NCBI GenBank assembly: GCA_964291415.2
Contig: OZ219917.1
Location: 960,001 to 1,024,000, forward strand
Source of the DNA: Alphaproteobacteria bacterium
GTDB lineage: Bacteria; Pseudomonadota; Alphaproteobacteria; SP197
Length of the DNA stretch: 64,000 nt
Direction: 5' to 3'
Both the position numbers and the translations under genes were made by a program. How positions within the stretch are numbered: the stretch's first letter is position 1; each line of letters starts with the position of its first letter. This document shows positions 2,555-29,093 of the stretch, in pieces. Below the pieces are notes generated by a model that was given only the letters and a program-made list of their open reading frames with translations, was not told the DNA's origin and did no database searches.

Positions 2555-4225
2555 CTACGGATGGGGGAAGACCCACTGCGGCTCCCTGCCGCTGGAGATG
2601 TCACCGGGAAGCGGTGCTCCCTGGTACAGGGTCACGCGGGTCCAGAGGTCGGACTTGGGATCGAAGCCGTTGGCGCCGAAGAAGGCGAGCTTGAAGCGCA
2701 GGATATCGAGCGGCCGCCGGTCGGCCGCCAGCAGATTGTCGCGAATCTCCGCATAGGGAAGGCGGGCGAGGTGCTGGACGCGGCGCACCGTGCTTCGCCA
2801 TTCCGGCGCCGCGATGAGAAAGTCGGCGACGCATTCCCGGCGATCGTGATCCAGGAGCCTTGCTTTCAGCATGGCGACATCGCGTCCGATGGCCACGGCC
2901 ATTTCCTTGTCGGCGCCGGGCTCGGCGTAGCGATCCCCCACCCGCGGTTCCAGCTTTTCCTGCGAGTAGTACCAGAAGCGCTGGCGGGACTCCCGGGCGG
3001 CATGATCGATGGCGAGAGCCCAGCCGTAGTTCTCGTCGATGAGGTCGATGAGATCCCCGACCGGCATGGCCGGTCTCACGGCCGGCAGGCCGCCGGAACT
3101 CATGGACTCGCACAGCCCGTCGACCAGCGCTCCCTGGTGCTCGAGCAACAGGGCCACCGTCATCTCCTGGCCTTCAAGGGAAAATCGTCGCGACGCAAGG
3201 CGCCAGAGGGCATCCCAGGGCCGTTCGCCGTCGAGCCCATCGTTGCACCAGGAATCGAGGTATGCGAGGTCCTGGCCGAGTCTCGAGATGCGTGCCGACT
3301 GCACCGGATCATCGACAGTCCAGGCAGCAACGTGGCGCCGCGCGTCGTCCAGAAGATCGCGGAACTCCGCGATGACGTCGGGGGTGGCCCGTTCCACCTC
3401 CCGCACGCGCAGGAGGGCGCATTCGCGCGCCGTGACCCAGCTGTTGATCAACAGGGGGTGCTTGACGAGAAAGGGCGCCATGCCGAGGCCCGTGGCATTG
3501 CCGATACCGAGCGTCCTGGCAAGATCCTCCGAGAGTTCCGCAGCCCGGTGCCCTGACCGTTGCCGGGCCATGTGATTGACGAGATCGACACTCATCCAGC
3601 GGATGAGATAGACGGCCAGAAGTTCGGCCTGGAAGGGAGCCTCCAACTCCTCCCGTCCGGCGATCCGGCCGCGGTCGGCGCAGCCGAACTTGCCGCTTCC
3701 GTAGACCGCGGTCGTGCGCATCAGGTAGCCCACGTCCGATATCAGATCGCGACAGGGCTGCCGGCCACCGGCCAGGCTCTCCACAACGTGATCGAAGATC
3801 CTGCCGCTCCTGTTGGCCCGCGCCAGGACCAGTTCACTGGCCCGGAATCGCCCCGCCTCCTGGCGGGGCGTGTTCCTTGCGAGGCGTTCGATGTCTGCTG
3901 TGCCGGGGACACCGTCGAAGAGCGAGAATGTCGTGTCCCAGATGTCGGCGATGACCCGGTCGGTTCTCTCCTGTGGGTCGATGACTCCCGAAAATCCCAC
4001 CAGGCTGTAAGTCCGGCGGGGACCGTGCACAACGTGGAGCGTGCGGCCGACTCCGTTGCGATCAAGATCGAGGCGCACTCTCTCGAAACGCCAGCGTTCC
4101 CGGGTCATGCGGCGGACCAGCTGGCGCATGAAACTCAGCCGCGTGGGAAAGGATGATCCCATGCGTTCAAGGCGCATGACCTCGTCCGGGGGGCGAAGTT
4201 GCGGAGTGTCAACAACCGCCGTCAT
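2555..4225 (-). CDS. Hypothetical protein, 556 aa, unknown function
   Basis: Long ORF with protein-like composition; its ATG overlaps the upstream monooxygenase stop (ATGA); motifs YLMRTTAVYGSGKFG, GIGNATGLGMAPFL, WYYSQEKLEPR. Confidence 0.75.
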   Translation of the reverse strand: MTAVVDTPQLRPPDEVMRLERMGSSFPTRLSFMRQLVRRMTRERWRFERVRLDLDRNGVGRTLHVVHGPRRTYSLVGFSGVIDPQERTDRVIADIWDTTFSLFDGVPGTADIERLARNTPRQEAGRFRASELVLARANRSGRIFDHVVESLAGGRQPCRDLISDVGYLMRTTAVYGSGKFGCADRGRIAGREELEAPFQAELLAVYLIRWMSVDLVNHMARQRSGHRAAELSEDLARTLGIGNATGLGMAPFLVKHPLLINSWVTARECALLRVREVERATPDVIAEFRDLLDDARRHVAAWTVDDPVQSARISRLGQDLAYLDSWCNDGLDGERPWDALWRLASRRFSLEGQEMTVALLLEHQGALVDGLCESMSSGGLPAVRPAMPVGDLIDLIDENYGWALAIDHAARESRQRFWYYSQEKLEPRVGDRYAEPGADKEMAVAIGRDVAMLKARLLDHDRRECVADFLIAAPEWRSTVRRVQHLARLPYAEIRDNLLAADRRPLDILRFKLAFFGANGFDPKSDLWTRVTLYQGAPLPGDISSGREPQWVFPHP

Positions 4226-16512: not shown

Positions 16513-16598
16513 CGTTACCGCTGATCAAGTCGCGCCCCTTGTTCCGTCGCGCGGGCTATGGCACTAGACTTGAATCCGGCGGTGTGCGGATGGGTTTG

Positions 16599-16931
16599 AT
16601 GCCGAGAATGACCTTCATTGTGCGAAGTGGGGAGCGTGTCGAGATCGATGCGCCGGAAGGACTCTCCCTTCTCGAGATCGCACGGCAGTACGATATCGAC
16701 ATCGAGGGCGCCTGCGAGGGTTCCCTTGCCTGTTCCACGTGCCACGTCATTGTCGACGCGGAGGATTTCGAGCGCCTCGAGGACCCGAGCGAGGACGAGG
16801 AGGACATGCTCGATCTTGCTTTCGGCCTGACCCGCACCTCCCGACTGGGATGCCAGATCCTGCTGACTGAGGAGCTCGACGGACTGACGGTGACGCTGCC
16901 CCTTGAAACCCGCAACATGCTCTTCGAGTGA
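16599..16931 (+). CDS. fdx: 2Fe-2S ferredoxin, adrenodoxin/ISC type
   Basis: [14 protein letters not shown]...EEDMLDLA...SRLGCQ. Confidence 0.9.
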
Positions 16932-18095: not shown

Positions 18096-18950
18096 ATGGT
18101 GGTCACAGGCAACATCCGGCCCCTGACCGGTCACATCGGCGCGGAGATCTCCGGGATCGATCTCGGACACCTCGACGGTGCCAGGGCCGCCGCCCTGCGC
18201 GAGACATGGCTCGAACACAAGGTCCTGTTCTTTCCACGACAGGACTTGTCGGCCGATGACCTTGTGCGCGTGGCGTCCTGCTTTGGCGAGATCGACCCTC
18301 CGCACTCCGGGCTCGAACGCCACCCCGACAACGCCGCGGTGATGATCGCGGCAAGCCGCAAGGGGGAGGGCGGAGGCAAGTACAACGCCATCTGGCACAG
18401 TGACGTCACGTTCGACGAGACGCCGCCAGCAGCCTCGATTCTGTACGCCAGAACCCTGCCTCCTGTCGGCGGCGACACACTCTTCACGTCGATGGAGGCG
18501 GCCTTCGACGCCCTGTCACAGCGTCTGAAGACGGCCATCGAGGGTCTGGAGGCGTTCCACGACGGGATTCCCAACTTCACCTCCTATCTCCTCGATCCGG
18601 GTACGCCGGACGGGCCCCGGCGTCTGGAGAATCTCAAGCGTGAGCACGCCGGATGCGTTCACCCGGTCGTGGTGCGTCACCCCGAGACAGGCCGCCGGGC
18701 GCTCTTCGTCAACCGTGCCTTCACCCAGCGGATCCTCGGCCTGCCGGATATCGAGAGCCGTGGACTGCTGAACCTCCTGATCGAGCATTGCGAACAGGCC
18801 TCATTCCAGGTGCGGTGGTCCTGGTCGAGAGGCGATGTCGCGATCTGGGACAACCGCTCTACCATGCACTACGCTGCCTTCGACTACGGTCTCCACGACC
18901 GGATCATGCATCGCGTGACCCTGAAGGGCGCCCGTCCCCTGGCGGCATGA
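18096..18950 (+). CDS. TauD/TfdA-family 2-oxoglutarate-dependent dioxygenase, copy 1
   Basis: WHSD (HxD), GGDTLF, HPVVVRHPETGR, WDNRSTMH, RIMHR. Confidence 0.9.
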   Translation: MVVTGNIRPLTGHIGAEISGIDLGHLDGARAAALRETWLEHKVLFFPRQDLSADDLVRVASCFGEIDPPHSGLERHPDNAAVMIAASRKGEGGGKYNAIWHSDVTFDETPPAASILYARTLPPVGGDTLFTSMEAAFDALSQRLKTAIEGLEAFHDGIPNFTSYLLDPGTPDGPRRLENLKREHAGCVHPVVVRHPETGRRALFVNRAFTQRILGLPDIESRGLLNLLIEHCEQASFQVRWSWSRGDVAIWDNRSTMHYAAFDYGLHDRIMHRVTLKGARPLAA

Positions 18951-18995: not shown

Positions 18996-19850
18996 ATGGT
19001 GGTGGTGGGCAACATCCGTCCCCTGACCGGTCATATCGGCGCGGAGATCTCCGGGGTCGATCTCAGGCGCCTTGACGACGGCACGGTCAACGCCCTGCGC
19101 GAGGCCTGGCTCGAACACAAGGTCCTGTTCTTTCCGCGCCAGGGGTTGTCACCTGACGAACTGGTGCAAGCAGCCTCGCGTTTCGGCGACATCGAGCCGC
19201 TGCACCCCGGGCTTGAACGTCACCCCGACAACCCGGACGTGATGGTCACGGCCACCCGCGACGGAAAGGGTGACGCAATCTTCAACGCCACCTGGCACAG
19301 CGACGTCACGTTCGACGAAACACCGCCGGCCGCCTCGATGCTGCAGGCCGAATCCCTGCCGTTCGTTGGCGGCGACACGCTTTTCATGTCGATGTACGCC
19401 GCATGGGATGCCCTGTCCGAGCGTCTCAAGAGGGCCGTTGACGGCCTTCACGCCTTCCACGACGGTGTCCCGACCTTCACCCCCTACCTCCTCGAATCCG
19501 GCGGCGCGGATGGCCCTGAACGTCTGCGGGCGCTCAAGCGCGACTATCCCGGATGCGTTCATCCCGTGGTGGTGCGCCATCCCGAATCAGGACGCCGCGC
19601 GCTCTACGTCAATCGCGGCTTCACCAGGAAGATTCTCGGATTGCCGGATATCGAGGGCCGCGGACTGCTGAACCTTCTTCTCGAGCATTCGGAGCAGTCA
19701 TCTTTCCAGGTGCGCTGGACCTGGTCGGAGGGTGACGTGGCATTTTGGGACAACCGTTGCACGATGCACTACGCCGCCAGGGACTACGGTGCGCAAGAAC
19801 GGGTCATGTATCGCGTGACGCTGAAAGGATCACGCCCTCTCGCTGCCTGA
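18996..19850 (+). CDS. TauD/TfdA-family 2-oxoglutarate-dependent dioxygenase, copy 2 (tandem paralog)
   Basis: WHSD, GGDTLF, WDNRCTMH, RVMYR; same length as copy 1 and colinear with it. Confidence 0.9.
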   Translation: MVVVGNIRPLTGHIGAEISGVDLRRLDDGTVNALREAWLEHKVLFFPRQGLSPDELVQAASRFGDIEPLHPGLERHPDNPDVMVTATRDGKGDAIFNATWHSDVTFDETPPAASMLQAESLPFVGGDTLFMSMYAAWDALSERLKRAVDGLHAFHDGVPTFTPYLLESGGADGPERLRALKRDYPGCVHPVVVRHPESGRRALYVNRGFTRKILGLPDIEGRGLLNLLLEHSEQSSFQVRWTWSEGDVAFWDNRCTMHYAARDYGAQERVMYRVTLKGSRPLAA

Positions 19851-19856
19851 CTCCTG

Positions 19857-20681
19857 TCAGCCCGGGCCGGGAGGCACCGCATCGCCGCTGGCGGCCAGGG
19901 TGCCATCGGCATCGTGCTGTTCGTCCCCTGTCAGAGCCGGGCAGAAGACGGACAGCAGGTGCAGATCGCTCAGGGCATGCATGCTGTGGCGGTCTTCGGG
20001 ACCGACGCAGTACATCATTCCCGGCTCCATCTGCCAGGTCTCTCCGGAGCCAAGGTTTGTCACCTCTCCTGTGCCCTCGAGAACGTAGTTTGCCTCCCAG
20101 TGGTGCTTGTACCACAGGACATTGCGACTGCTGGCGGCAAGGCGGACGTCGCTGAGGGAGAACCCGACACCATCGGCGCGCAACAGCATGCGGACCGTCG
20201 TTGCGCTGCCGCCGGCAACCACGAGCTGGCGACCCTGGCCAGCGAGTTCGTCGACGGTCCTCACGAACATGCACTCCCTGCCCTCGGGAATGGGTCCGGT
20301 CGGCGGGTAGGCGCCGTCGCTGTCGTGCGCCTCGTCCCCGACAAGGGGCGGATTGAAGACGCTGACAACGTGCAGGTCGTCGTCGGGGTCGACCAGATGA
20401 CGATCGGTTGGTCCAACCGTGTAGAGCGTGCCTGGGGCCAGCGGCCAGCTCCGGTCCCGTTCAAGGTCACGCACCGTGCCCGTGCCGGAAACGATGTAGT
20501 TCGCTTCCCAGTGGTGCCTGTACCACAGGACACTGGACATGCCGCCCGCGACCCGCACGTTCGACAGGGTGAAACCCATGCCGTCGGGGATGGTGAGAAA
20601 GCGTGTCGAGCGGACCCTGCCCTCGGACAGGACCTTTTCGGCGCCGGCACGGCGACGCTCGTCAAGAGTGCGAACAAACAT
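19857..20681 (-). CDS. Ectoine synthase (EctC)-like cupin protein with two tandem domains
   Basis: Two repeats of MFVRT...DG(M/V)GF...LWY(R/K)HHWEANY...PG..Y.VGP.DRH...SVF.P.L.GDE.HD.DG, matching the EctC pattern; ATG 20681 with GGAGG RBS. Confidence 0.8.
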   Translation of the reverse strand: MFVRTLDERRRAGAEKVLSEGRVRSTRFLTIPDGMGFTLSNVRVAGGMSSVLWYRHHWEANYIVSGTGTVRDLERDRSWPLAPGTLYTVGPTDRHLVDPDDDLHVVSVFNPPLVGDEAHDSDGAYPPTGPIPEGRECMFVRTVDELAGQGRQLVVAGGSATTVRMLLRADGVGFSLSDVRLAASSRNVLWYKHHWEANYVLEGTGEVTNLGSGETWQMEPGMMYCVGPEDRHSMHALSDLHLLSVFCPALTGDEQHDADGTLAASGDAVPPGPG

Positions 20682-20682
20682 G

Positions 20683-21855
20683 TCAGCCTCCTCTGAAGGA
20701 ATCGGATCCTTCCGGCAGGGCGTTGCTGCCGGCGATGCGTCGCGCAAGGTACTGGCAGAATTCGAAGTTGGGGCGTTCCAGATAACTCAGGTGTCCAGGG
20801 CGTGCCAGAGAGGCCCTGGTGCCGTCGAACACGGCTTCGGTTCCCACCCGGTCCTCCTCGTTGACGGCATCGAGAATCCTCTTGGCCTCGGCGACGTGCT
20901 CGGCTCCCTTCGGGTCGTTGATGAAGTCGGGCGCCATGCCGCCGCCATAGAGAATCCTCACCCGGCCGGCGCTTTCCGGCTGCAGCGACAGGTACCAGAA
21001 GTATCCCGGGGTCAGGGTGATCATGTGGCTGGGGTAGATGGTGATCAGCGCCGTGGTCCGTCGCCACTCGGCCTCGAGATAGGTGCAGTCGGGATGGGCG
21101 TTGGCGAGCGGAAAGTCGGATTCCTTGGTGATCCAGTGATAGTTGAACACCGCGTCCCCGGCCGGCATGTCCATCTCCTCGATCTTCGACTGGTTGCCGA
21201 TGGTCCCGCGGTGGAGCTGGAAGAGGTGATAGCTCTCCATGAAGTTCTCGGCGAGAATCTTCCAGTTCGTGTCCCAGACATGCTCTTCCCGGAAGGTCTC
21301 GGTGTAGTCGGCGAAGCGGTAGCGGCCCGTGACGATCTCCTCTACCGGTCGAAAGAGGTCCTTGGGAGGCGGAATGTCGGGATCCAGCGTGACGTAGATC
21401 CAGCCGTCCCAGACATCGCAGCGAACGCGGGGCAGGCAGTAGTCGCGCTTGTCGAAGGCCGGGCTCTCCTCCATCCACGGTGCGTGGCGCAGGCGGCCGT
21501 CGAGGCCGTAGGACCACGCATGGTAGGGGCAGGCGATGACCTTGCGGTTGCCGCGTCCGGCAAGGAGCAGGCTCATCCGGTGCCGGCAGACATTCGAGAA
21601 GGCCGAGATTTCCCCGGCGTGGTCGCGCACGATGAAGATCGGCTCATCGACGAGCCTGAAGGTGAGATAGTCGCCCCGTTCGGGAATGGCGTCGGCGCGG
21701 CCGGCACAGATCCATTCACTTGCGAAGACCCGCTCCTTTTCCAGGGCCAGGAACGCCTCGCTGGAATAGATGCCGGGAGGCGCCGCCCGCGCTTCACGGA
21801 AGGGACGTTCCGCGTTGGCCCTCAGGTCACCAAGTAGTGCTTCGATTGTCACCAT
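20683..21855 (-). CDS. Rieske non-heme iron oxygenase alpha subunit (choline monooxygenase/GbcA/CntA-like)
   Basis: CRHR...CPYH Rieske motif; NWK...ENFMESYHLFQLH mononuclear Fe site; C-terminal EED. Confidence 0.85.
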   Translation of the reverse strand: MVTIEALLGDLRANAERPFREARAAPPGIYSSEAFLALEKERVFASEWICAGRADAIPERGDYLTFRLVDEPIFIVRDHAGEISAFSNVCRHRMSLLLAGRGNRKVIACPYHAWSYGLDGRLRHAPWMEESPAFDKRDYCLPRVRCDVWDGWIYVTLDPDIPPPKDLFRPVEEIVTGRYRFADYTETFREEHVWDTNWKILAENFMESYHLFQLHRGTIGNQSKIEEMDMPAGDAVFNYHWITKESDFPLANAHPDCTYLEAEWRRTTALITIYPSHMITLTPGYFWYLSLQPESAGRVRILYGGGMAPDFINDPKGAEHVAEAKRILDAVNEEDRVGTEAVFDGTRASLARPGHLSYLERPNFEFCQYLARRIAGSNALPEGSDSFRGG

Positions 21856-21953
21856 CGATCAAGAAACAGTGCCGCTGCCAACCGGCATCATTGCCAAATC
21901 GCAACGACCCGACAACCACGCGCATCGCGATCGGCGGGCAATCGAGGCGCTCG

Positions 21954-22793
21954 TCAGTCCCAGACCCAGACGTCGAGACCGTTATCGAGTTCGCCCTCGG
22001 GCCCACCCATGATGCGCGATGCGCCGATGCGGTGTCCGTAGCCGAGAATGTCGCCGTGCTTGGCGTAGCCCAGGAGCCGGCGGATGGTCCTGTCGTAACG
22101 CGCCGCGACCTCCGGCGGCACGGCGAGGTACTGGTTCACCTCCTGTCTGAGCCAGCCCAGCGCGTATGTGTTGATGAGACCCATGCGCGATCCGTTCGAC
22201 CGGTTGGCCCCGCCGCCGTGCCACAGGGAACCCATGTAGAAGAGGGCCGATCCCTTGGGCATCGACGCCTGCACGACGGACGAGAGGGCGGGGTCTCCGT
22301 AGTCGGTGAGGCGGTGGCTTCCCAGGGCAACACGGGTGGCGCCGTTCTCCTGGGTGAAGTCGTCGATTGCCCACATCACGCCGATCTGGAACTCCATGCC
22401 CGGAATGCGGACCGGGTAGATCGTGTCGTCGCGGTGGAGAACCTGGTCGCCCTCGCCGGGAAGAATCTCGATCCCCGTCGCGCTGCCGATACGGTAGGCA
22501 AGGCAATGCGGAAGAAGGATGGCATCAGCCACATCCAGCACCAGTGGATGGCCAATCATCCCGGCGGCGGCAGGCGCGTAGCCCAGCACACTCGAGATGC
22601 GCAGGGTGCGGTAACCGTTGAAGTCGTTCTCCTGCTGGCGCCCGCGCTGGTCGAATTCGGGCCGCATTTCCGCTGCACAACGGTCCACGGCTTCGACATC
22701 GAGAAGGCCGGTCACGACCGCCGCGCCGGCGGAGCGCAGGGCGGCCACGACAGCAGGCGCCGGTTCCGCCGCGTCAAGGACTGGAAGCTCCAT
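21954..22793 (-). CDS. Phytanoyl-CoA dioxygenase (PhyH)-family 2OG/Fe(II) oxygenase
   Basis: [33 protein letters not shown]; start 22793 or GTG 22802. Confidence 0.85.
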
Positions 22794-22969
22794 CGCCGTC
22801 ACGAATCCTCCGGCAGTCACATCCCGATCGCGGTGCGATCCTCGGATCGTCCGCATGATAGGGCAGGTCGAAGCAGTCAAACCAGCAGGAAATGACTTTC
22901 TGGCAAGGGACCGATTCACACAATTCTCCGGTGTGTCATGCCGCCACGGTTTGTGCCATGATCCACGTG

Positions 22970-23695
22970 ATGAGCGACCGTCCAGTCTGTGCCATTGTCG
23001 GAGCCGGTGAGGGCCTTGGCCGCTCACTCAGCGCGCGTTTCGCCGCCGGCGGCTGCGACATTGCTCTCGTGTCGCGCACGCGCCACGGGAGCGAGGCTGC
23101 CCTGGAGCACGCACGGGCTGCCAACGGCGCTGTGGACGTGCGCTTCTTCGCCGCAGACGCCACCCGTCCGGTCTCCGTGGAGGACGCCATGGCGCGGGTT
23201 GCAGAGGAGATGGGCGCCATCGAGGTCCTCATCTACAACGCCCGTGGAGACTTCGTCCGTTGCGATCCCCTGGACATGACCTACGCCCAGCTCGAGGAGG
23301 TGTTCCAGGTGGAGGTGATGGGTGCCTTCGCGGCGGCCCGCTCGGTGCTGCCGGCGATGCGCGAGAAGGGGAGCGGCACCATCATGTTTTCCAGCGCCAC
23401 CGCGGCCTTTCGCGGTTCCGCCACCCACCCGCTCTATGCCATCGGCAAGTTCGGCCTGAGGGCCCTGGCGCAGTGCCTGGCGAAGGCCCATGCACGGGAC
23501 GGCGTCCATGTCGTTCACATGAGACTCGACTGCGATCTCGACGTGCCGGTCATGCAAAAGGTCTATGATGATCCGGCCGCCCTGGCCGATCCTGATGGCG
23601 TGGCCGACACATACTGGTGGGTGCATCTCCAGCCGCCTTCGGCATGGAGCAACGAGGTGGAACTGAGACCGTTCAGCGAAGCATGGACAATCTGA
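22970..23695 (+). CDS. Short-chain dehydrogenase/reductase
   Basis: [21 protein letters not shown] (YxxxK), W..E.ELRP..E.W C-terminus. Confidence 0.85.
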
Positions 23696-23711
23696 ATTGG
23701 AGGATGACGAC

Positions 23712-24551
23712 ATGAACTCCGGACGGTGCCTGTGCGGCGGCGTCACCTGGGAACTCGCGGCCGAGCCGTTCCAGGCGTTCAACTGCCACTGCAAGCTGTG
23801 CCGCAAGGCCCATGGCACGGCCTTCGGAACATACTGGTTCCTCCACGCAAGCGAGATTTGCATGACCGGCGGCGAGGACATCACGGTCGCCTACCGTTCG
23901 TCCCACATGCTGGTCCGGAAGTTCTGCGGCGTGTGCGGCTCGGTGGTTCCCTATGCCGGCGAGGCGGACGACCAACACTTCGTGGCTCCCGGTGGCTGCC
24001 ATGACGACGGCAAGCCGTCGGACTGCAACATCTTCGTACCTCATGGCGCGCCCTGGCACGAGGTGACGGGAGATCTGCCCCGTCATGACGACTACCCGCT
24101 GGAGACCGGCTATCCGAGGGTCGAGGAGGATCCGGTGCCGCCACCGCCACCGGGGGTCGTGCGGGGCTGGTGCATGTGCGGCCGCGTCGCCTTCGAGACG
24201 ACCGGTCCCTACAGGTCAGCCTGGCACTGCCATTGCGGCCGCTGTCGGCGGGGACGAGCCGCGGCCCACTCCTCGAACGCCCTGATCGATCCCCGGCACC
24301 TGCAGTTCACGCAAGGCGTCGAACACCTGAAGAGCTTCCGCGTACCAGACGCCCGACGCTACACCCAGGTCTTTTGCGAACTCTGCGGATCAAAGATGCC
24401 CCAGGTCGATGGCGACCGCGCCATCGTGCCTCTCGGCATCCTCGAGGATGATCCCGGTATCAGACCTGAGGCCCATATCTTTGTCGGGTCCAAGGCCGGA
24501 TGGCACGTCATCACCGACGATCTGGAGCAGCACGACGGCGCGGGTGCCTGA
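23712..24551 (+). CDS. GFA (glutathione-dependent formaldehyde-activating/CENP-V)-family protein with two tandem domains
   Basis: Two sets of CxCG...CHCxxC...FCxxCGS Zn motifs joined by a poly-Pro linker. Confidence 0.85.
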   Translation: MNSGRCLCGGVTWELAAEPFQAFNCHCKLCRKAHGTAFGTYWFLHASEICMTGGEDITVAYRSSHMLVRKFCGVCGSVVPYAGEADDQHFVAPGGCHDDGKPSDCNIFVPHGAPWHEVTGDLPRHDDYPLETGYPRVEEDPVPPPPPGVVRGWCMCGRVAFETTGPYRSAWHCHCGRCRRGRAAAHSSNALIDPRHLQFTQGVEHLKSFRVPDARRYTQVFCELCGSKMPQVDGDRAIVPLGILEDDPGIRPEAHIFVGSKAGWHVITDDLEQHDGAGA

Positions 24552-24571: not shown

Positions 24572-25549
24572 TCAGGTTCGGGAGCGCGCGGTGGGTGTCA
24601 GCCGCTTGTAGTGCAGGTGCTGGTAGATCGAGACCTCGATCGACATGACGCCGTCGAGGGGCCGGATGTCATCGTCGACGACGGCGAGGAGTTCCGCCTC
24701 GTCGCGGCAGGCAATCTCCGTGAAGATATCGAATCGTCCGGCACAGATCGCGACATAGGTGACATGCGAGAGACCTGAGAGGTTGTCGGCGACGTCGCGC
24801 GCCGGAACGCCGCCGCCAACACGCACGGCGACCCAGGCGACGGTTCCGTAGCCCAGGCTCATCGGGTTGACGATGGCAATGACGCTGATGACGCCGTCCG
24901 CTGCCATGGCGTTGAACCTGTTGCGAACCTGGGATTCCGAGATGCCGAGCCTGTCGGCCACGGCCTGCAGCGGCATGCGCCCGTCTTCCGACAGTGCCTT
25001 GACGATGTCGCGGTCCGTTGCGCCGAGGGCGCGCGGGACCACGCCTGCTTCCTGCAGGGACTTGCGCCGCGCCGCGCCGAAGTTTGCCAGCTGATAGTGG
25101 AGCGACAGGTAGGGAAAGCTCTCGATGGCGCGGATCCCGATGATTCTGCCGATCCGGTTCTCGATCACGTCCTGCAGTTCACGGCGGTCGTGGCAGATGA
25201 CTTCGGCGAAGAGGCCGTAGCGGCCCGTGGCCACCACGACGTAGTCGATGACGGCGACGGACAGCAGTTTCCCGGCCGTCCGCGAGGCCGGTACGGCAGG
25301 GTCGAGGACAAGGCCGAGGAGGGCGGAGCTGTGATATCCAAGGGCGCGCGGATCGGTCACGGCGGCGATCTGGATGACTTCGGAATGAAGCAGGTGCCTC
25401 ATCCGACTGCGCACGGTCTTCTCGGTGAGGCCCGTCGCCCTGGCAATCTGTGCGAAGGACCGCCTTCCGTCCTCCTGAAGGTGTTCGACGATGGAGCGGT
25501 CGGCCGGATCGAGTGCCGGTGCCTGCCTGAGAAAGGCGCCCGGCACCAA
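24572..25549 (-). CDS. Lrp/AsnC-family regulator with two complete tandem Lrp units
   Basis: DRSIVEHLQEDGRRSFAQIARATGLTEKTVRSR and DRDIVKALSEDGRMPLQAVADRLGISESQVRNR, each followed by a ligand domain (ATGRYG / CAGRFD); start approximate. Confidence 0.8.
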   Translation of the reverse strand: MVPGAFLRQAPALDPADRSIVEHLQEDGRRSFAQIARATGLTEKTVRSRMRHLLHSEVIQIAAVTDPRALGYHSSALLGLVLDPAVPASRTAGKLLSVAVIDYVVVATGRYGLFAEVICHDRRELQDVIENRIGRIIGIRAIESFPYLSLHYQLANFGAARRKSLQEAGVVPRALGATDRDIVKALSEDGRMPLQAVADRLGISESQVRNRFNAMAADGVISVIAIVNPMSLGYGTVAWVAVRVGGGVPARDVADNLSGLSHVTYVAICAGRFDIFTEIACRDEAELLAVVDDDIRPLDGVMSIEVSIYQHLHYKRLTPTARSRT

Positions 25550-25562
25550 GGGCGTCCCCACC

Positions 25563-26426
25563 CTAGCGATCGACAAGCTTCAGCGAGCGCGAGAACACTT
25601 CGCTCGTGGACTCCGCCAGGCGCTCGAGTTCGCCAAAGTGGTTTTCACCGGGAACGTCGTAACGTTCCATGGTTCGCTGCTCCGTGCGGAACCGGGCGCA
25701 GTAGGCATCCGACTGGCGGGTGAATTCCGGGGTTTCGTCGCCACCGGCGATGACGAGATGGGGCGTGTTGGAGAACATCTCCATGAACAGGGGACTCTCG
25801 CGCCTTGCCTCGGCGACATCCATCCGCGGTCCGGCATTGATCGACGTGTGAACCAGGGGTTCGAGTTCGAAAATCCCCGAGATCGGCAGGGCGGCCCGGA
25901 CGAGGTCACCCGGCAGGGCCGAGTCGAAGCCTGGCCAGTCCGTCGCCATCATCATCGCCGTCAGGTGCCCGCCGGCCGAATGTCCCATGACCGAAAGGCG
26001 CTCGCGATCGAACCCGAGGTCGATGGCATTGTGCCACAGCCAGGCGAGGCACCGCCGCACCTGGGGCGCGATGTCGCCGAGACGGCATGCCGGCGTGAGC
26101 GTGTAGTTGATCATCGCGACATTGACCCCGGCGTCCAGGAACGCCTCGGCGACGAAGCTGTACATGTCCTTGTCGCCGCGCTGCCAGTAGCCGCCGTGGA
26201 TGTAGACGAGGAGCGGGCCGTCCGCGGCGGCACGAAAGAGGTCGAGCTTGTCGCGTTCGCCGCTTCCGTAGGCGAGATCGATCGCCACGTCACGGGAATC
26301 GCGAAGTGCCGCGCTGCGCTCGAGCCAGCGCGCCACGATGGCATCGAAATCGGCCTCCTTGCTGCGCAGCTCGTACTGGTACTCCAGCTCTTCGGCATTC
26401 ATGCCGCGGTAGAGGTCCATCGTCAT
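25563..26426 (-). CDS. Alpha/beta hydrolase, arylformamidase (kynurenine formamidase)-like
   Basis: HGGYWQ, GHSAG, SGIFEL.PL, GxxETPEF.RQS, NHF. Confidence 0.8.
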   Translation of the reverse strand: MTMDLYRGMNAEELEYQYELRSKEADFDAIVARWLERSAALRDSRDVAIDLAYGSGERDKLDLFRAAADGPLLVYIHGGYWQRGDKDMYSFVAEAFLDAGVNVAMINYTLTPACRLGDIAPQVRRCLAWLWHNAIDLGFDRERLSVMGHSAGGHLTAMMMATDWPGFDSALPGDLVRAALPISGIFELEPLVHTSINAGPRMDVAEARRESPLFMEMFSNTPHLVIAGGDETPEFTRQSDAYCARFRTEQRTMERYDVPGENHFGELERLAESTSEVFSRSLKLVDR

Positions 26427-26536
26427 TGCCCTGCCGGTATGGAGGGAACACTTTATGACGAAAATAGACGTTGACGCAAGCCAGATTGACGAATTACGGT
26501 AGTATCGCCCGGAAAAACTGTGAATTGAGGAAATCC

Positions 26537-27613
26537 ATGCTGGTCGGCCTTTTGCAGGAAGCGGAGTTGATGGAGGGTGTCGACGTCGCCCAGCGCTATT
26601 GGGAGATGATCGAGGAGGCGGCGCTCGCCGACAGCCTCGGGTTCTCCTGCTGGGGAACGTCCGAACAGCATTTCTCCCCGCCGCGCTTTGCCGTGGCCGC
26701 GCCCGAGGTTCTCTACGCCGCGGTGGCCCAGCATACGGAGACCATCAGGCTGCGCGTCATGTGCGCGGTGCTGCTGGCGTGGAACCACCCGATCCTGGTC
26801 GCCGAGAGGCTGGCTACCCTCGATATCGTCTCGAGGGGGCGGGCGGAGCTGGCGACGGCGCGGTCGAACAATGTCCATACCCTCGAGGCCTTCGGTGTCG
26901 ACCCCGCCACCACGCGCCAGCAGTGGGCGGACTCCATCGAGGTTGTCGTCAAGGCGTTCTGTGACGACGTCCTGGAACACGACGGTCCCGTGTGGAAGAT
27001 CCCGCCACGGGAAATCGTGCCCAAGCCGGTGCAGAAACCCCACCCCCCGCTGTCGGTGGCGGCCTCCAGCGTGCAGTCCCACGTGGCGGCTGGCGAGCGC
27101 GGTATCGGCGCCCTGTGCTTCGAGAGCTACTTTGGATTCGGATACCTGCAGGACTGTATCGACGGGTATCGCGCCGGCCTTGCGAAGGGGACGGCCATGG
27201 CGCCACGGCGCACGGAGCACATGGGCCTCTATGTCGCGACGGCCTTCTGTGCCGAGACGCGCGAGGAAGCCTGCCGCATTGCCCACGATGTCGCCATGGG
27301 CTACTACCAGTTCCTCGTCGACATCTACGTCCCTCTCGGCAGGCAGCAGTCCTACGAGTATCTCGACGACAAGCTGAAACTGCTCGTCGATCACCGGGAC
27401 GACTTCGACTATCTCCTCACCGAGACGCCGTCGATCATGATCGGCACGCCTGATGACTTCGTCCGGCGCATCGAGCGGCTCGAGGCCATGGGTATCGACG
27501 AGATTCTCATGAGAATCGATGGCGTCGCTCACGAGGACATCATGCGGAGCTTCCGCCTGATCGGCGAGGAGGTCATCCCGCGCGTCTCGAGCCGGGTCCA
27601 GGCGACAACCTGA
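26537..27613 (+). CDS. LLM-class (luciferase-like) flavin-dependent oxidoreductase
   Basis: ADSLGF..W..EQHF, HPILVAERLATLDIVSRGR, PKPVQKPHPP, IGTPD; GAGG RBS. Confidence 0.85.
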   Translation: MLVGLLQEAELMEGVDVAQRYWEMIEEAALADSLGFSCWGTSEQHFSPPRFAVAAPEVLYAAVAQHTETIRLRVMCAVLLAWNHPILVAERLATLDIVSRGRAELATARSNNVHTLEAFGVDPATTRQQWADSIEVVVKAFCDDVLEHDGPVWKIPPREIVPKPVQKPHPPLSVAASSVQSHVAAGERGIGALCFESYFGFGYLQDCIDGYRAGLAKGTAMAPRRTEHMGLYVATAFCAETREEACRIAHDVAMGYYQFLVDIYVPLGRQQSYEYLDDKLKLLVDHRDDFDYLLTETPSIMIGTPDDFVRRIERLEAMGIDEILMRIDGVAHEDIMRSFRLIGEEVIPRVSSRVQATT

Positions 27614-27765
27614 CCGCAAGCGGCGCCCTGGAAGCGCCGTTCTGACACGACCGGCAGACCCTGGAGAAACCGGGGTCCGCAGACGAGGTGACGATGGGCC
27701 CTCCAGGGCCAACAGCGACGCTATTCCTTGCCCGCGCGAGAACGAAGGGGTCATCATCGCCAGTC

Positions 27766-28977
27766 ATGACGGACTCCCTCGACACGATCCAGCTGGCGGA
27801 TCCCCGGTTCTGGAGGCGCCCTGACAGGATGGCGGTGTTCGCCCGGTTCCGCCGCGAACGGCCGGTCGCCCGTCAGACCATGCCGGACGGCAGCGTCTCC
27901 TTCTGGTCGCTCACGCGCCACGCCGAGTGCCGCGACGTGTCACGCCAGACATCGCTCTTCCGGTCGCAGCATGGCACCGGAATGGTGGCGGAGGGGCCGG
28001 AACTGGCCTACGAGATCGGCGGCATGCTGAACCGAGACGCGCCGCTGCATCCGGCTCTCCGGCGCATTCTGGCGAAGGTGTTCACGCCGCGGTTCCTGGA
28101 GGGCATGGAACGGGACATGGATGCCGCGGCCCGCTCCGTGGTTGGCGACGTCAGCGAGCGCGGTTGCTGCGACTTCGCCGTGGACATCGCCAATCGCATG
28201 CCCCTGACGGTGATCTGCGACATGCTGTCGGTGCCGGCCGGGCGCGATCGCGATGAACTCGCACGACTCACCCTGAAGGCGCTCGATCCCGTCGAGGCCG
28301 CGGAGTCGCTGAGGGCATTCCGTCTCCTCAATCTCTACGGTGAGGACCTTGCCCGCCAGCGCCGGCGGGCACCCGGTGACGATCTCGTCAGCCGCCTGGT
28401 CGCGGCGAAGGTCGATGGCGCCAGGCTCGCTGACCGCGACATCGGCATCTACTTTCAGCTTCTCATCACCGCGGGCATCGAAACCACGTCGAGTTCACTG
28501 GCCCAGGGCATGCACCTTCTCGCCTCCCATCCGGCACAGTGGCGCGACTGGCGGGAGAACTACGAGGAACTCGCCGGAACGGCGATCGAGGAGATCGTGC
28601 GCTACGCCAGTCCGGTCGTTCACTTCGGTCGCCGCGTGGAACGCGACGCCGTGATCGCCGGCCAGCCGATCGCTGCCGGTGACCAGGTCGTCTTCTGGTA
28701 CATATCGGCCAACCGGGACGAGACCGTCTTCGCGCAGCCGGAGCGCTTCGACATCCGCCGCTTCCCCAACGATCATGTCGGCTTTGGCGGTGGCGGTCCG
28801 CACCACTGTCTCGGCATTCACCTCGCCCGTCGCGAGATGCACCACCTGTTCAGGGTTCTCTTCGAAACCCTGCCCGATCTCGACGTCGATCTCGATGGCG
28901 CGCGTCCTCATCACGGCCTGTTCATCAACGGCATGCAGCGCTTGCCATGCCGGTTCACGCCGCAGCGCGCGCCTTGA
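27766..28977 (+). CDS. Cytochrome P450
   Basis: I-helix AGIETT, EEIVR (ExxR), SANRDE, heme motif FGGGGPHHCLG. Confidence 0.92.
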   Translation: MTDSLDTIQLADPRFWRRPDRMAVFARFRRERPVARQTMPDGSVSFWSLTRHAECRDVSRQTSLFRSQHGTGMVAEGPELAYEIGGMLNRDAPLHPALRRILAKVFTPRFLEGMERDMDAAARSVVGDVSERGCCDFAVDIANRMPLTVICDMLSVPAGRDRDELARLTLKALDPVEAAESLRAFRLLNLYGEDLARQRRRAPGDDLVSRLVAAKVDGARLADRDIGIYFQLLITAGIETTSSSLAQGMHLLASHPAQWRDWRENYEELAGTAIEEIVRYASPVVHFGRRVERDAVIAGQPIAAGDQVVFWYISANRDETVFAQPERFDIRRFPNDHVGFGGGGPHHCLGIHLARREMHHLFRVLFETLPDLDVDLDGARPHHGLFINGMQRLPCRFTPQRAP

Positions 28978-29017: not shown

Positions 29018-29093
29018 GGCGGAGTAGCTCAGTTGGTAGAGCAGGGGAATCATAATCCCTGGGTCGGGGGTTCAAGTCCCTCCTCCGCTACCA
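29018..29093 (+). tRNA. tRNA-Met (CAT), probably elongator
   Basis: Cloverleaf: acceptor GGCGGAG/CTCCGCT, D stem GCTC/GAGC, anticodon loop AT-CAT-AA, TTCAAGT T-loop, encoded CCA. Confidence 0.92.

Follow-up and report, generated by a model that had tools for sequence, protein, structure and literature searches.

A two-domain EctC-like cupin encoded beside a Rieske oxygenase in an alphaproteobacterium: a candidate C-N bond enzyme outside ectoine synthesis

In this study, we analyzed a 64,000-nucleotide stretch of an alphaproteobacterial genome (assembly GCA_964291415.2, contig OZ219917.1, positions 960,001 to 1,024,000 of the forward strand; hereafter, the window), in which a gene for a protein with two EctC-like cupin domains, here designated dEctC, directly follows a gene for the alpha subunit of a Rieske non-heme iron oxygenase. 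Both halves of dEctC fell outside the canonical ectoine synthases (EctC), two residues proposed to take part in EctC catalysis are missing from both halves, and neither ectA nor ectB was found in the genome. We propose that dEctC is an EctC-derived, metal-dependent enzyme that does not make ectoine and that opens or closes a C-N bond beside amine oxidizers in catabolism, a reading which in our judgment stands about an even chance of being correct. Its metal binding, type of reaction, catabolic direction, and order of steps are parts that we infer.

Two EctC-like domains in one protein

The 274-amino acid (aa) product of the dEctC gene was matched in two stretches each by the Pfam model PF06339 (Ectoine_synth; 237 bits in total) and by the NCBIfam "ectoine synthase" subfamily model NF009806 (243 bits). 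This bears out a preliminary description of the window, made from the letters alone, which had claimed a protein of two EctC-like domains and had expected two matches from an ectoine synthase hidden Markov model. The halves were 48% identical to each other (65/135), and each aligned to the EctC structure 5ONM across the whole cupin (E 6e-25 and 8e-23, HMMER). The motifs HHWEANY, PG..Y, and DRH, claimed earlier as the metal-ligand pattern, were read in the translations of both halves. Because residue M1 is invariant among 53 aligned relatives, the ATG is the likely start. As had been described, this ATG comes one base after the TGA stop codon of the Rieske gene, with aggagg upstream of it, and a gene of the PhyH family (PF05721) lies just upstream on the same strand, 98 nt before the Rieske start. 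A promoter and terminator scan of positions 19500-23300 gave no promoter-like site; its one terminator-like stem, in the PhyH-Rieske interval, was not above the expectation from shuffled sequences.

The putative metal site is retained and some substrate contacts are altered

Next, the residue roles of P. lautus EctC were mapped onto dEctC by the HMMER alignment to 5ONM and tallied over 119 two-domain proteins (Table 1). According to the text of PMC6344544, the iron ligands of this EctC are Glu57, Tyr84, and His92. The same text gives Trp21, Arg25, Asn38, Thr40, Tyr52, and Glu57 as contacts of N-gamma-acetyl-diaminobutyrate (N-gamma-ADABA), and Ser23, Asn38, Tyr52, Glu57, and Phe106 as those of ectoine, with Trp21 and Thr40 as proposed participants in catalysis (PMC6344544). 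In dEctC, the putative iron ligands are E59, Y87, and H95 (N half) and E196, Y224, and H232 (C half).

Table 1. Conservation of EctC positions in 119 two-domain proteins
Residue	N half	C half
E57	119/119	118/119
Y84	113/119	115/119
H92	119/119	119/119
Y52	117/119	119/119
F106	118/119	119/119
R25	107/119	119/119
W21	0/119	0/119
T40	2/119	0/119
W at position 56	118/119	114/119
N at position 59	119/119	119/119

The tally indicates that the metal site and the contacts to the reacting nitrogen are kept in the two-domain proteins, and that both halves have substitutions at the residues which hold the amino-acid head of N-gamma-ADABA or stack on ectoine. Position 38 in these proteins is mostly Ser, Asn, or Cys. 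In both halves of dEctC from the window, Trp21 is changed to Val/Ala, Asn38 to Ser, and Thr40 to Val, and Arg25 and Tyr52 are kept. For comparison, W21, T40, and V59 were each present in 31/31 canonical single-domain EctCs, a set picked from genomes by a high PF06339 score and the W-x-S-x-R motif; their motifs read W-x-S-x-R and (I/L/F)-E-x-V. The departure from canonical EctC noted in the preliminary description was thus confirmed, including the absence of the Trp from both halves. As judged from the alignment, dEctC does not have the N-gamma-ADABA contact set of a bona fide EctC.

Phylogeny and size of the family

A per-domain tree of 129 rows was computed with IQ-TREE in its quick mode (LG+G4). 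It comprised 27 N halves and 27 C halves (every second row of the 53-relative alignment), 50 single-domain proteins (every second of those of 128-147 aa), 16 of the 31 canonical EctCs, and 9 orphan EctC-type proteins; some of the single-domain proteins come from contigs of about 1 kb and are possibly fragments, and others are on megabase-size contigs. All halves of two-domain proteins and the HHWEANY single-domain proteins formed one group of 96 rows with no canonical sequence inside (Shimodaira-Hasegawa-like approximate likelihood ratio test, SH-aLRT, 98). The Trp-bearing orphans, which read DWGNGTSHR, formed a group of their own (8 rows, SH-aLRT 97), and the canonical EctCs lay across the root from the HHWEANY group, with a support of only 9 for the root split. 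The tree, which the preliminary description had suggested as a check, therefore places both halves of dEctC outside the canonical EctCs and the clade of the sampled orphans.

The N and C halves of the two-domain proteins were distributed over three or more distinct sub-clade pairs, interleaved with single-domain proteins. Forcing all N halves together cost 149 log-likelihood units (approximately unbiased test, p 0.012), the group having been named post hoc and the p value being only indicative. As far as this tree can be followed, fusion, or fission, has probably occurred more than once. N-like and C-like proteins (P0221 and P0123, respectively) and a Rieske protein (P0264, 70% identity) are encoded separately on a single contig of 14,652 bp; the N-like and C-like pair might represent the fused gene in split form, or a frameshift.

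A search for relatives of two-domain size (150-480 aa) gave 635 clusters at 90% identity (E <=0.001). When domains were counted in the query and the best 120 of these clusters, two EctC domains were found in 119/121 and three in 2/121. The three-domain chains are P0011 (414 aa, on a 1.4-kb contig) and P0014 (374 aa). Shorter proteins included 233 single-domain relatives, many of about 137 aa with HHWEANY, and the whole EctC superfamily comprised 556 representatives at 50% clustering (E <=0.001). Thus, "orphan," the word used for the gene in the preliminary description, overstates its rarity. In sources that label the clusters of two-domain size, the names are "ectoine synthase," "L-ectoine synthase," and "quercetin dioxygenase-like cupin." In a protein atlas, 25 of 30 feature matches carried the PF06339 + PF07883 set of the top row, and the matches listed for this set are clusters of about 275 aa with names like "putative ectoine synthase."

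In an even sample across the phylum, 63 of 401 genomes had a PF06339 match, and only the present genome had two such domains in one open frame. The dEctC domains scored 118-122 bits, the lowest of the complete PF06339 matches in the 401 genomes, most others scoring 170-205. Among close relatives, a PF06339 match was found in 20/22 other genomes of the genus and 22/24 of the family. A plasmid search with dEctC returned 121 records, all below 60% identity, and no two-domain form was among the matches listed; in these, both halves aligned to the same stretch of about 400-540 nt, mostly an annotated single ectoine synthase gene. Tandem arrays of three to five dEctC-like genes were also observed (L082:1331-5333, L110:4252-9759, L017:2-3379, L024:8034-11390, and L126:6968-9514), whose paralogs are 29-65% identical to dEctC of the window; the L082 array has five genes.

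Predicted structure

An AlphaFold2 model of dEctC, built from the 53-row alignment, was obtained with a predicted local distance difference test score of 95.2 and a predicted template modeling score of 0.93, and contained two beta-barrels. Over its whole length, the model resembled solved bicupins such as the quercetinase YxaG (Z 23.0, 240 residues aligned, 17% identity); other quercetinases gave Z of about 22, (S)-ureidoglycine aminohydrolase 21.5 (220 residues aligned), and oxalate decarboxylase about 20.6. Two jelly-roll cupin barrels in one chain make the modeled dEctC a bicupin by fold, and in the model this likeness to the solved bicupins is one of fold level only. Two-domain cupins led both the Foldseek and the VIA results, and single-domain EctC chains were not among the matches listed, which does not count against kinship with EctC because that kinship rests on sequence.

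Ectoine genes and reductases in the genome

We then searched the genome (4.44 Mb, 5 contigs, completeness 100, contamination 9) for the genes of ectoine synthesis and breakdown. Genome-wide, PF06339 gave no match beyond the two domains of dEctC, the EctA model gave zero matches, and the best match of the EctB model reached 172 bits against a cut-off of 552. The best genome-wide match of the EutD model (DoeA/EutD) had 413 bits against a cut-off of 613, and that of DoeB/EutE had 246 bits against 403, both on other contigs. The preliminary description had reported no ectA, ectB, or Rieske reductase in the window; this holds, and the lack of ectA and ectB extends to the whole genome. Together with the non-canonical clade and the loss of Trp21 and Thr40, it supports the earlier claim that dEctC does not serve ectoine synthesis.

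No FNR-type reductase was found in the window, and the only PF00175 match in the genome was on another contig at 22.7 bits, against a cut-off of 22. The Rieske alpha subunit had 39 matches in the genome, itself included (e.g., C4:1167714-1168820, 48% identity). With 39 Rieske matches against one borderline FNR domain, a window without a reductase follows the rule in this organism and is not a peculiarity of the locus. Alpha-only Rieske oxygenases are thus greatly expanded in this genome and must share electron donors.

The Rieske link is an apparent lineage feature

The best curated model for the Rieske alpha subunit was GbcA, at 133 bits against a cut-off of 670 (NCBIfam), so that the equivalog level was not reached, and the best structure match was CntA (E 6e-30), aligned only over residues 24-218. 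Residues C90, H92, C109, H112, H210, and H215 were invariant in 52 relatives. By its C-x-H...C-x-x-H motif, catalytic domain, and iron-binding His residues, the protein is a Rieske oxygenase; D329 or D335 may be the carboxylate ligand. The nearest solved structure of the PhyH protein was SwnH1 (E 4e-20). Its identity as the ectoine hydroxylase EctD was considered and rejected, since it had no NCBIfam match at E <=0.01 and no EctD was among 45 PDB sequence matches.

Conservation of the Rieske-dEctC pair was analyzed in 124 loci: 34 from species-representative genomes, 10 further regions from relatives, and 80 kept of 272 metagenome relatives. At least 1.2 kb of flank was available on one side in 95/124 loci and less in 29/124, so that the neighbor counts are minimums. 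Genes were called by an open reading frame (ORF) picker based on GC at third codon positions, which missed dEctC in 12/124 loci, and neighbor tallies were cross-checked with tblastn. In the species representatives, a Rieske gene was directly upstream of dEctC in 12/34 (L006-L016 and L018), with dEctC at least 72% identical, and in 0/22 of the other loci, even at E 0.001. It was present in 5/10 of the further regions (70-77% identical, within about 1.5 kb). In the metagenome scan, three of the 80 loci had a Rieske at 70-89% identity, and one more had a distant Rieske at 29%. In total, 20/124 loci had a Rieske at least 70% identical, and by this identity they look like one alphaproteobacterial lineage.

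Within this lineage, L015 and L016 have a second dEctC paralog between the Rieske gene and the dEctC ortholog, and in the five regions from relatives the Rieske ortholog is accompanied by other dEctC paralogs (35-65% identity). The pairing thus outlasts paralog turnover, which points to a functional tie in this lineage. PhyH homologs share the dEctC locus in nine relatives of the lineage and in one Hyphomicrobiales locus. No Rieske gene was beside other EctC types, in 0/9 loci of "orphan W" proteins and 0/30 canonical loci. The tight coupling to the Rieske oxygenase put forward earlier therefore stands within the genus and through paralog turnover, and it fails for the family at large; as the distribution is read from sequence, the link is a feature of what looks like one lineage and not a property of all dEctC proteins. 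The preliminary description had named lack of conservation of this linkage in other genomes as evidence against itself, and the result weakens its idea that dEctC acts on the Rieske product.

Rieske homologs 56-58% identical were found on Paraburkholderia and Caballeronia replicons, and no EctC-like gene was present in the two annotated Burkholderiaceae loci, L093 (Caballeronia sp. NK8 pNK83) and L094 (Paraburkholderia sprentiae pl1WSM5005). Both carry a conserved unit of LysR, a Rieske gene, and a downstream ABC transporter, with a divergent set that comprises an FAD oxidoreductase, RidA, a deacylase (ArgE or M14), and DUF1028. This unit looks like an uncharacterized catabolic module in cultured strains in which the oxygenase could be studied.

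Other neighbors of dEctC genes

Deacylases of the AstE/AspA family were found at 7 loci, and inside the lineage they flank the Rieske gene; their sole NCBIfam match is DoeB, with scores of 26-42 bits where the cut-off is 403. At L086, a GcvT-like, folate-type aminomethyltransferase gene lies between the Rieske and dEctC genes. Outside the lineage, FAD oxidoreductases of the DAO family were tightly linked on the same strand at 9 loci (gaps of -3 to 34 nt), and the end of one DAO+FAO_M+GcvT fusion gene overlaps the dEctC start. Also tight and on the same strand outside the lineage were NAD-epimerase/dehydratases (6 loci) and DHDPS-like proteins (5 loci). An amidase with an ABC transporter was beside dEctC at 2 loci, and an AMP-binding enzyme with a P450 at 7 loci. 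GbcA/CntA-type Rieske monooxygenases, DAO-family dehydrogenases, and DAO-GcvT fusions are classical oxidizers of the carbon adjoining an amine nitrogen, and such oxidations are known from the catabolism of betaine, sarcosine, and imino acids. The recurrence of amine-oxidizing partners and deacylases therefore suggests that dEctC may act at a C-N bond.

In the Hyphomicrobiales metagenome-assembled genome locus L035:7359-11208, the order is a ChaC-like gamma-glutamyl cyclotransferase, dEctC, a 131-aa ORF, PhyH, and an EamA transporter; its PhyH is 41% identical to that of the window, which makes this a second lineage with dEctC and PhyH together. An ORF of 115 aa without a Pfam match comes after the Rieske ortholog at L083:5611-5958 and L085:5837-6184, and at L083 this ortholog is preceded by a 390-aa ORF that matched neither Pfam nor NCBIfam.

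The surrounding window, habitat, and expression

The positions of dEctC and the genes around it are given in Table 2. The two TauD/TfdA-family paralogs scored 266 and 281 bits with the taurine dioxygenase model, both under its cut-off of 313, and cross-matches to them in the loci of relatives were about 72-75% identical. The ferredoxin gene overlaps mnmA, as it does in all lineage relatives, and its product may donate electrons to Rieske or P450 enzymes. Two neighbors of the double EctC, the two-GFA-domain protein and the two-module AsnC-type regulator, are also internally duplicated.

Table 2. Features of the window around dEctC
Feature	Position	Strand	Basis
[2Fe-2S] plant-type ferredoxin, 3 kb from dEctC	16539..16931	+	PF00111 52 bits
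TauD/TfdA-family dioxygenase, tandem paralog 1, convergent with dEctC	18096..18950	+	PF02668 217 bits
TauD/TfdA-family dioxygenase, tandem paralog 2, stop 6 nt from dEctC stop	18996..19850	+	PF02668 220 bits
dEctC, two-domain EctC-like cupin, 274 aa + stop	19857..20681	-	ORF translation; PF06339 x2; NF009806 x2
dEctC C half, residues 138-274	19860-20270	-	ORF translation
dEctC N half, residues 1-137	20271-20681	-	ORF translation
Rieske non-heme iron oxygenase alpha subunit, 390 aa	20683..21855	-	PF00355 71 bits; PF00848 69 bits
PhyH-family Fe/2-oxoglutarate dioxygenase, 279 aa from ATG at 22793	21954..22793	-	PF05721 95 bits
Short-chain dehydrogenase, divergent from PhyH	22892..23695	+	PF00106 111 bits
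Two-GFA-domain protein (glutathione-dependent formaldehyde-activating family)	23697..24551	+	PF04828 138 bits, 2 stretches
Duplicated AsnC/Lrp-type regulator, candidate regulator	24572..25576	-	PF13404 and PF01037, 2 stretches each

Besides the AsnC-type regulator, positions 24572-28977 encode an alpha/beta hydrolase, a luciferase-like monooxygenase, and a P450 (Pfam). Farther upstream, the window holds a Pot-like ABC transporter, a major facilitator superfamily transporter, an alcohol dehydrogenase, a 693-aa glutamine-synthetase-like protein, two monooxygenases of the FMO/Baeyer-Villiger type, and another hydrolase. A 556-aa ORF at 2555-4225 matched no Pfam family. On the whole, the first 29 kb of the window (1-29 kb) look like a catabolic island that ends near tRNA-Met (29018-29093). 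No AstE-like gene was found among the window genes scanned with Pfam.

The window stretch or its relatives are present in sponge and coral-reef metagenome runs; among the pieces listed for one sponge-metagenome run, 8 had 0-2 mismatches, and 6 of these were free of mismatches. Two sponge metatranscriptome libraries had short contigs on the locus. One of these contigs, 201 nt with 1 mismatch, spans 20583-20783, the junction of the Rieske stop and the dEctC start; it carries no level or strand and could be DNA carry-over, and is thus a weak hint of expression.

Proposed role of dEctC and alternative explanations

We propose that dEctC consists of two diverged EctC-type cupins of the HHWEANY clade fused into a pseudo-dimer, and that the Glu/Tyr/His triad of each barrel most likely serves, as in EctC, to bind a metal. 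Its chemistry would most likely be EctC-like, with water added to or removed from an amide, amidine, or imine carbon with the help of the metal, and the outcome would be the opening or closure of a ring at a C-N bond of a substrate that is neither N-gamma-ADABA nor ectoine. The candidates for this chemistry in the preliminary description were a cyclase or a ring hydrolase, with stachydrine and homarine among the possible substrates. In this lineage, dEctC would be co-expressed with the GbcA/CntA-like Rieske oxygenase, and probably also with PhyH, within a catabolic island. Since it is set with these enzymes in such an island, dEctC most likely handles either the substrate or the product of an enzyme that oxidatively attacks a position next to nitrogen, as a nitrogen-containing small molecule is broken down.

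Several observations weigh against this proposal. The loss of Trp21 and Thr40 could mean a different reaction and not merely a different substrate, and arrays of up to five paralogs are unusual for a single-step enzyme. The Rieske link is confined to an apparent single lineage, where shared descent could explain part of it, and three regions of the same genus, with dEctC 64-65% identical, have no Rieske gene within 8 kb. The neighborhoods of dEctC are heterogeneous, and some look biosynthetic, namely the gene order ABM-unknown-dEctC-TylF methyltransferase-glycosyltransferase (3 loci) and the contexts of an AMP-binding enzyme, an NAD-epimerase/dehydratase, and a P450 (7-11 loci). The short flanks of many loci, which make the neighbor counts minimums, count on the same side.

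A wider and more tentative proposal, which we hold with clearly less confidence, is that the HHWEANY clade in its single, double, triple, and tandem forms is a new family of enzymes that open or close cyclic amidine, imine, or lactam rings, or act on N-acyl-diamino acids, beside amine oxidizers (Rieske, DAO, and DAO-GcvT) and DoeB-like deacylases. These enzymes might define undescribed routes for the breakdown of ectoine-like compounds or N-heterocycles, with the Rieske-dEctC pair as the core here.

The alternative that survives best, although unlikely, is that dEctC carries out other cupin chemistry, such as that of a dioxygenase, an isomerase/epimerase, or a decarboxylase, on the product of an oxygenase, with no mechanistic kinship to EctC. 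The structural neighbors of the whole model are indeed bicupin dioxygenases and decarboxylases, and the Trp21 and Thr40 proposed as catalytic in EctC are lost. Moreover, the dEctC contexts with DHDPS, DAO, and OoxA-like proteins resemble hydroxyproline/opine-type clusters, in which an epimerase step is common. However, the likeness to bicupins stays at fold level (10-17% identity), the sequence similarity of dEctC is specifically to EctC (5ONM, E 6e-25; PF06339, 237 bits), and dEctC keeps Y52, E57, and F106, the residues in contact with the substrate nitrogen and the product.

The EctC reaction can be reversed in vitro, and dEctC might be a catabolic ring hydrolase of ectoine or hydroxyectoine that works in this reverse direction, replaces DoeA/EutD, and feeds a DoeB-like deacetylase. 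Such a replacement would be needed in a genome with no DoeA or DoeB above the cut-off, and the AstE/AspA deacylases that flank the Rieske-dEctC loci of relatives have DoeB as their sole curated match. Nevertheless, we consider this explanation improbable: dEctC lacks the Trp21 that stacks on ectoine and has another residue for the Asn38 that binds the carboxylate, Rieske, PhyH, and DAO enzymes are not needed for ectoine breakdown, the window genes scanned included no AstE-like gene, and the DoeB scores are far under the cut-off of 403.

It is still more improbable that dEctC is a true ectoine synthase working in salvage on N-gamma-ADABA taken up from outside. The database names, the HMM scores above the cut-off, and the retained iron ligands would fit such a role, and the solitary EctC of Pseudomonas syringae is a precedent, for which the data are called inconclusive by the text of the review itself (PMC5924519). 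On the other hand, W21 is found in 0/119 and T40 in at most 2/119 of the two-domain proteins, the clade is separate, the context is catabolic, and the domain scores of 118-122 bits are the lowest of the complete PF06339 matches in the 401 genomes. Least probable of all is a non-catalytic or degenerating cupin (a ligand binder, a scaffold, or a decaying duplicate), which tandem multi-copy arrays, some with stops inside the match, and a family of no known function would suit, and which is opposed by the near-invariance of the putative metal and pocket residues in both halves of 119 proteins, by the match retained in 20/22 genomes of the genus, and by an intact frame, tight coupling to the Rieske gene, and a confident model.

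Returning to dEctC as an EctC-derived enzyme of C-N bond chemistry, the ectoine synthase label that databases give to the two-domain family is probably wrong. EctC is used as a diagnostic marker for ectoine producers, and the present clade has hundreds of metagenome clusters, which go by "ectoine synthase" or "L-ectoine synthase" in sources that name them. If the proposal is true, the counts of ectoine producers in metagenomes are inflated, and a new C-N hydro-lyase family becomes open to assay, with a short list of candidate partner enzymes.

Comparison with known systems

With EctC (EC 4.2.1.108; P. lautus 5ONM/5ONN/5ONO, S. alaskensis 5BXX), dEctC shares the Pfam family and the residues Glu57/Tyr84/His92, Arg25, Tyr52, and Phe106. 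EctC is a homodimer of about 130 aa, whereas dEctC consists of two fused and diverged domains, is without Trp21 and Thr40, has Asn38 replaced and Trp56 and Asn59 gained, and belongs to a separate clade in a genome without ectA and ectB.

The solitary or orphan EctC-type proteins (Czech et al. 2018, PMC5924519; 2019, PMC6344544) are likewise encoded without ectAB. According to the text of these papers, they occur mostly in Alphaproteobacteria and other Pseudomonadota (PMC5924519), and their role has been an open question since the first report (PMC5924519, PMC6344544). The Trp is described as conserved in 145 orphan EctCs, sometimes shifted by two positions (PMC6344544), and the orphans sampled here carry it two residues upstream of position 21. 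In contrast, neither half of dEctC has a Trp in that strand, and the dEctC clade includes fused forms, which are not mentioned in the text of either paper, the supplements of which could hold such sequences (PMC5924519, PMC6344544). Full-text searches, which left out supplements, found no literature on a two-domain EctC; on EctC-like, orphan, or paralogous proteins they gave only these two papers, both from the Bremer group, and incidental mentions.

The Rieske partner resembles GbcA, CntA, and Stc2 in being an alpha-only enzyme of about 390 aa, and its Rieske and iron-site residues are invariant in its relatives. It differs from them in its score of 133 bits against 670 for GbcA, in that only the N-terminal 210 or so residues align, and in having no reductase gene nearby.

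Finally, the bicupins YxaG, oxalate decarboxylase, and (S)-ureidoglycine aminohydrolase also have two barrels per chain (Z 20.6-23 over 220-241 residues). These enzymes have His-rich metal sites. dEctC is only 10-17% identical to them, and differs in that its putative ligands are the Glu/Tyr/His of EctC and its domains appear to be EctC-derived.

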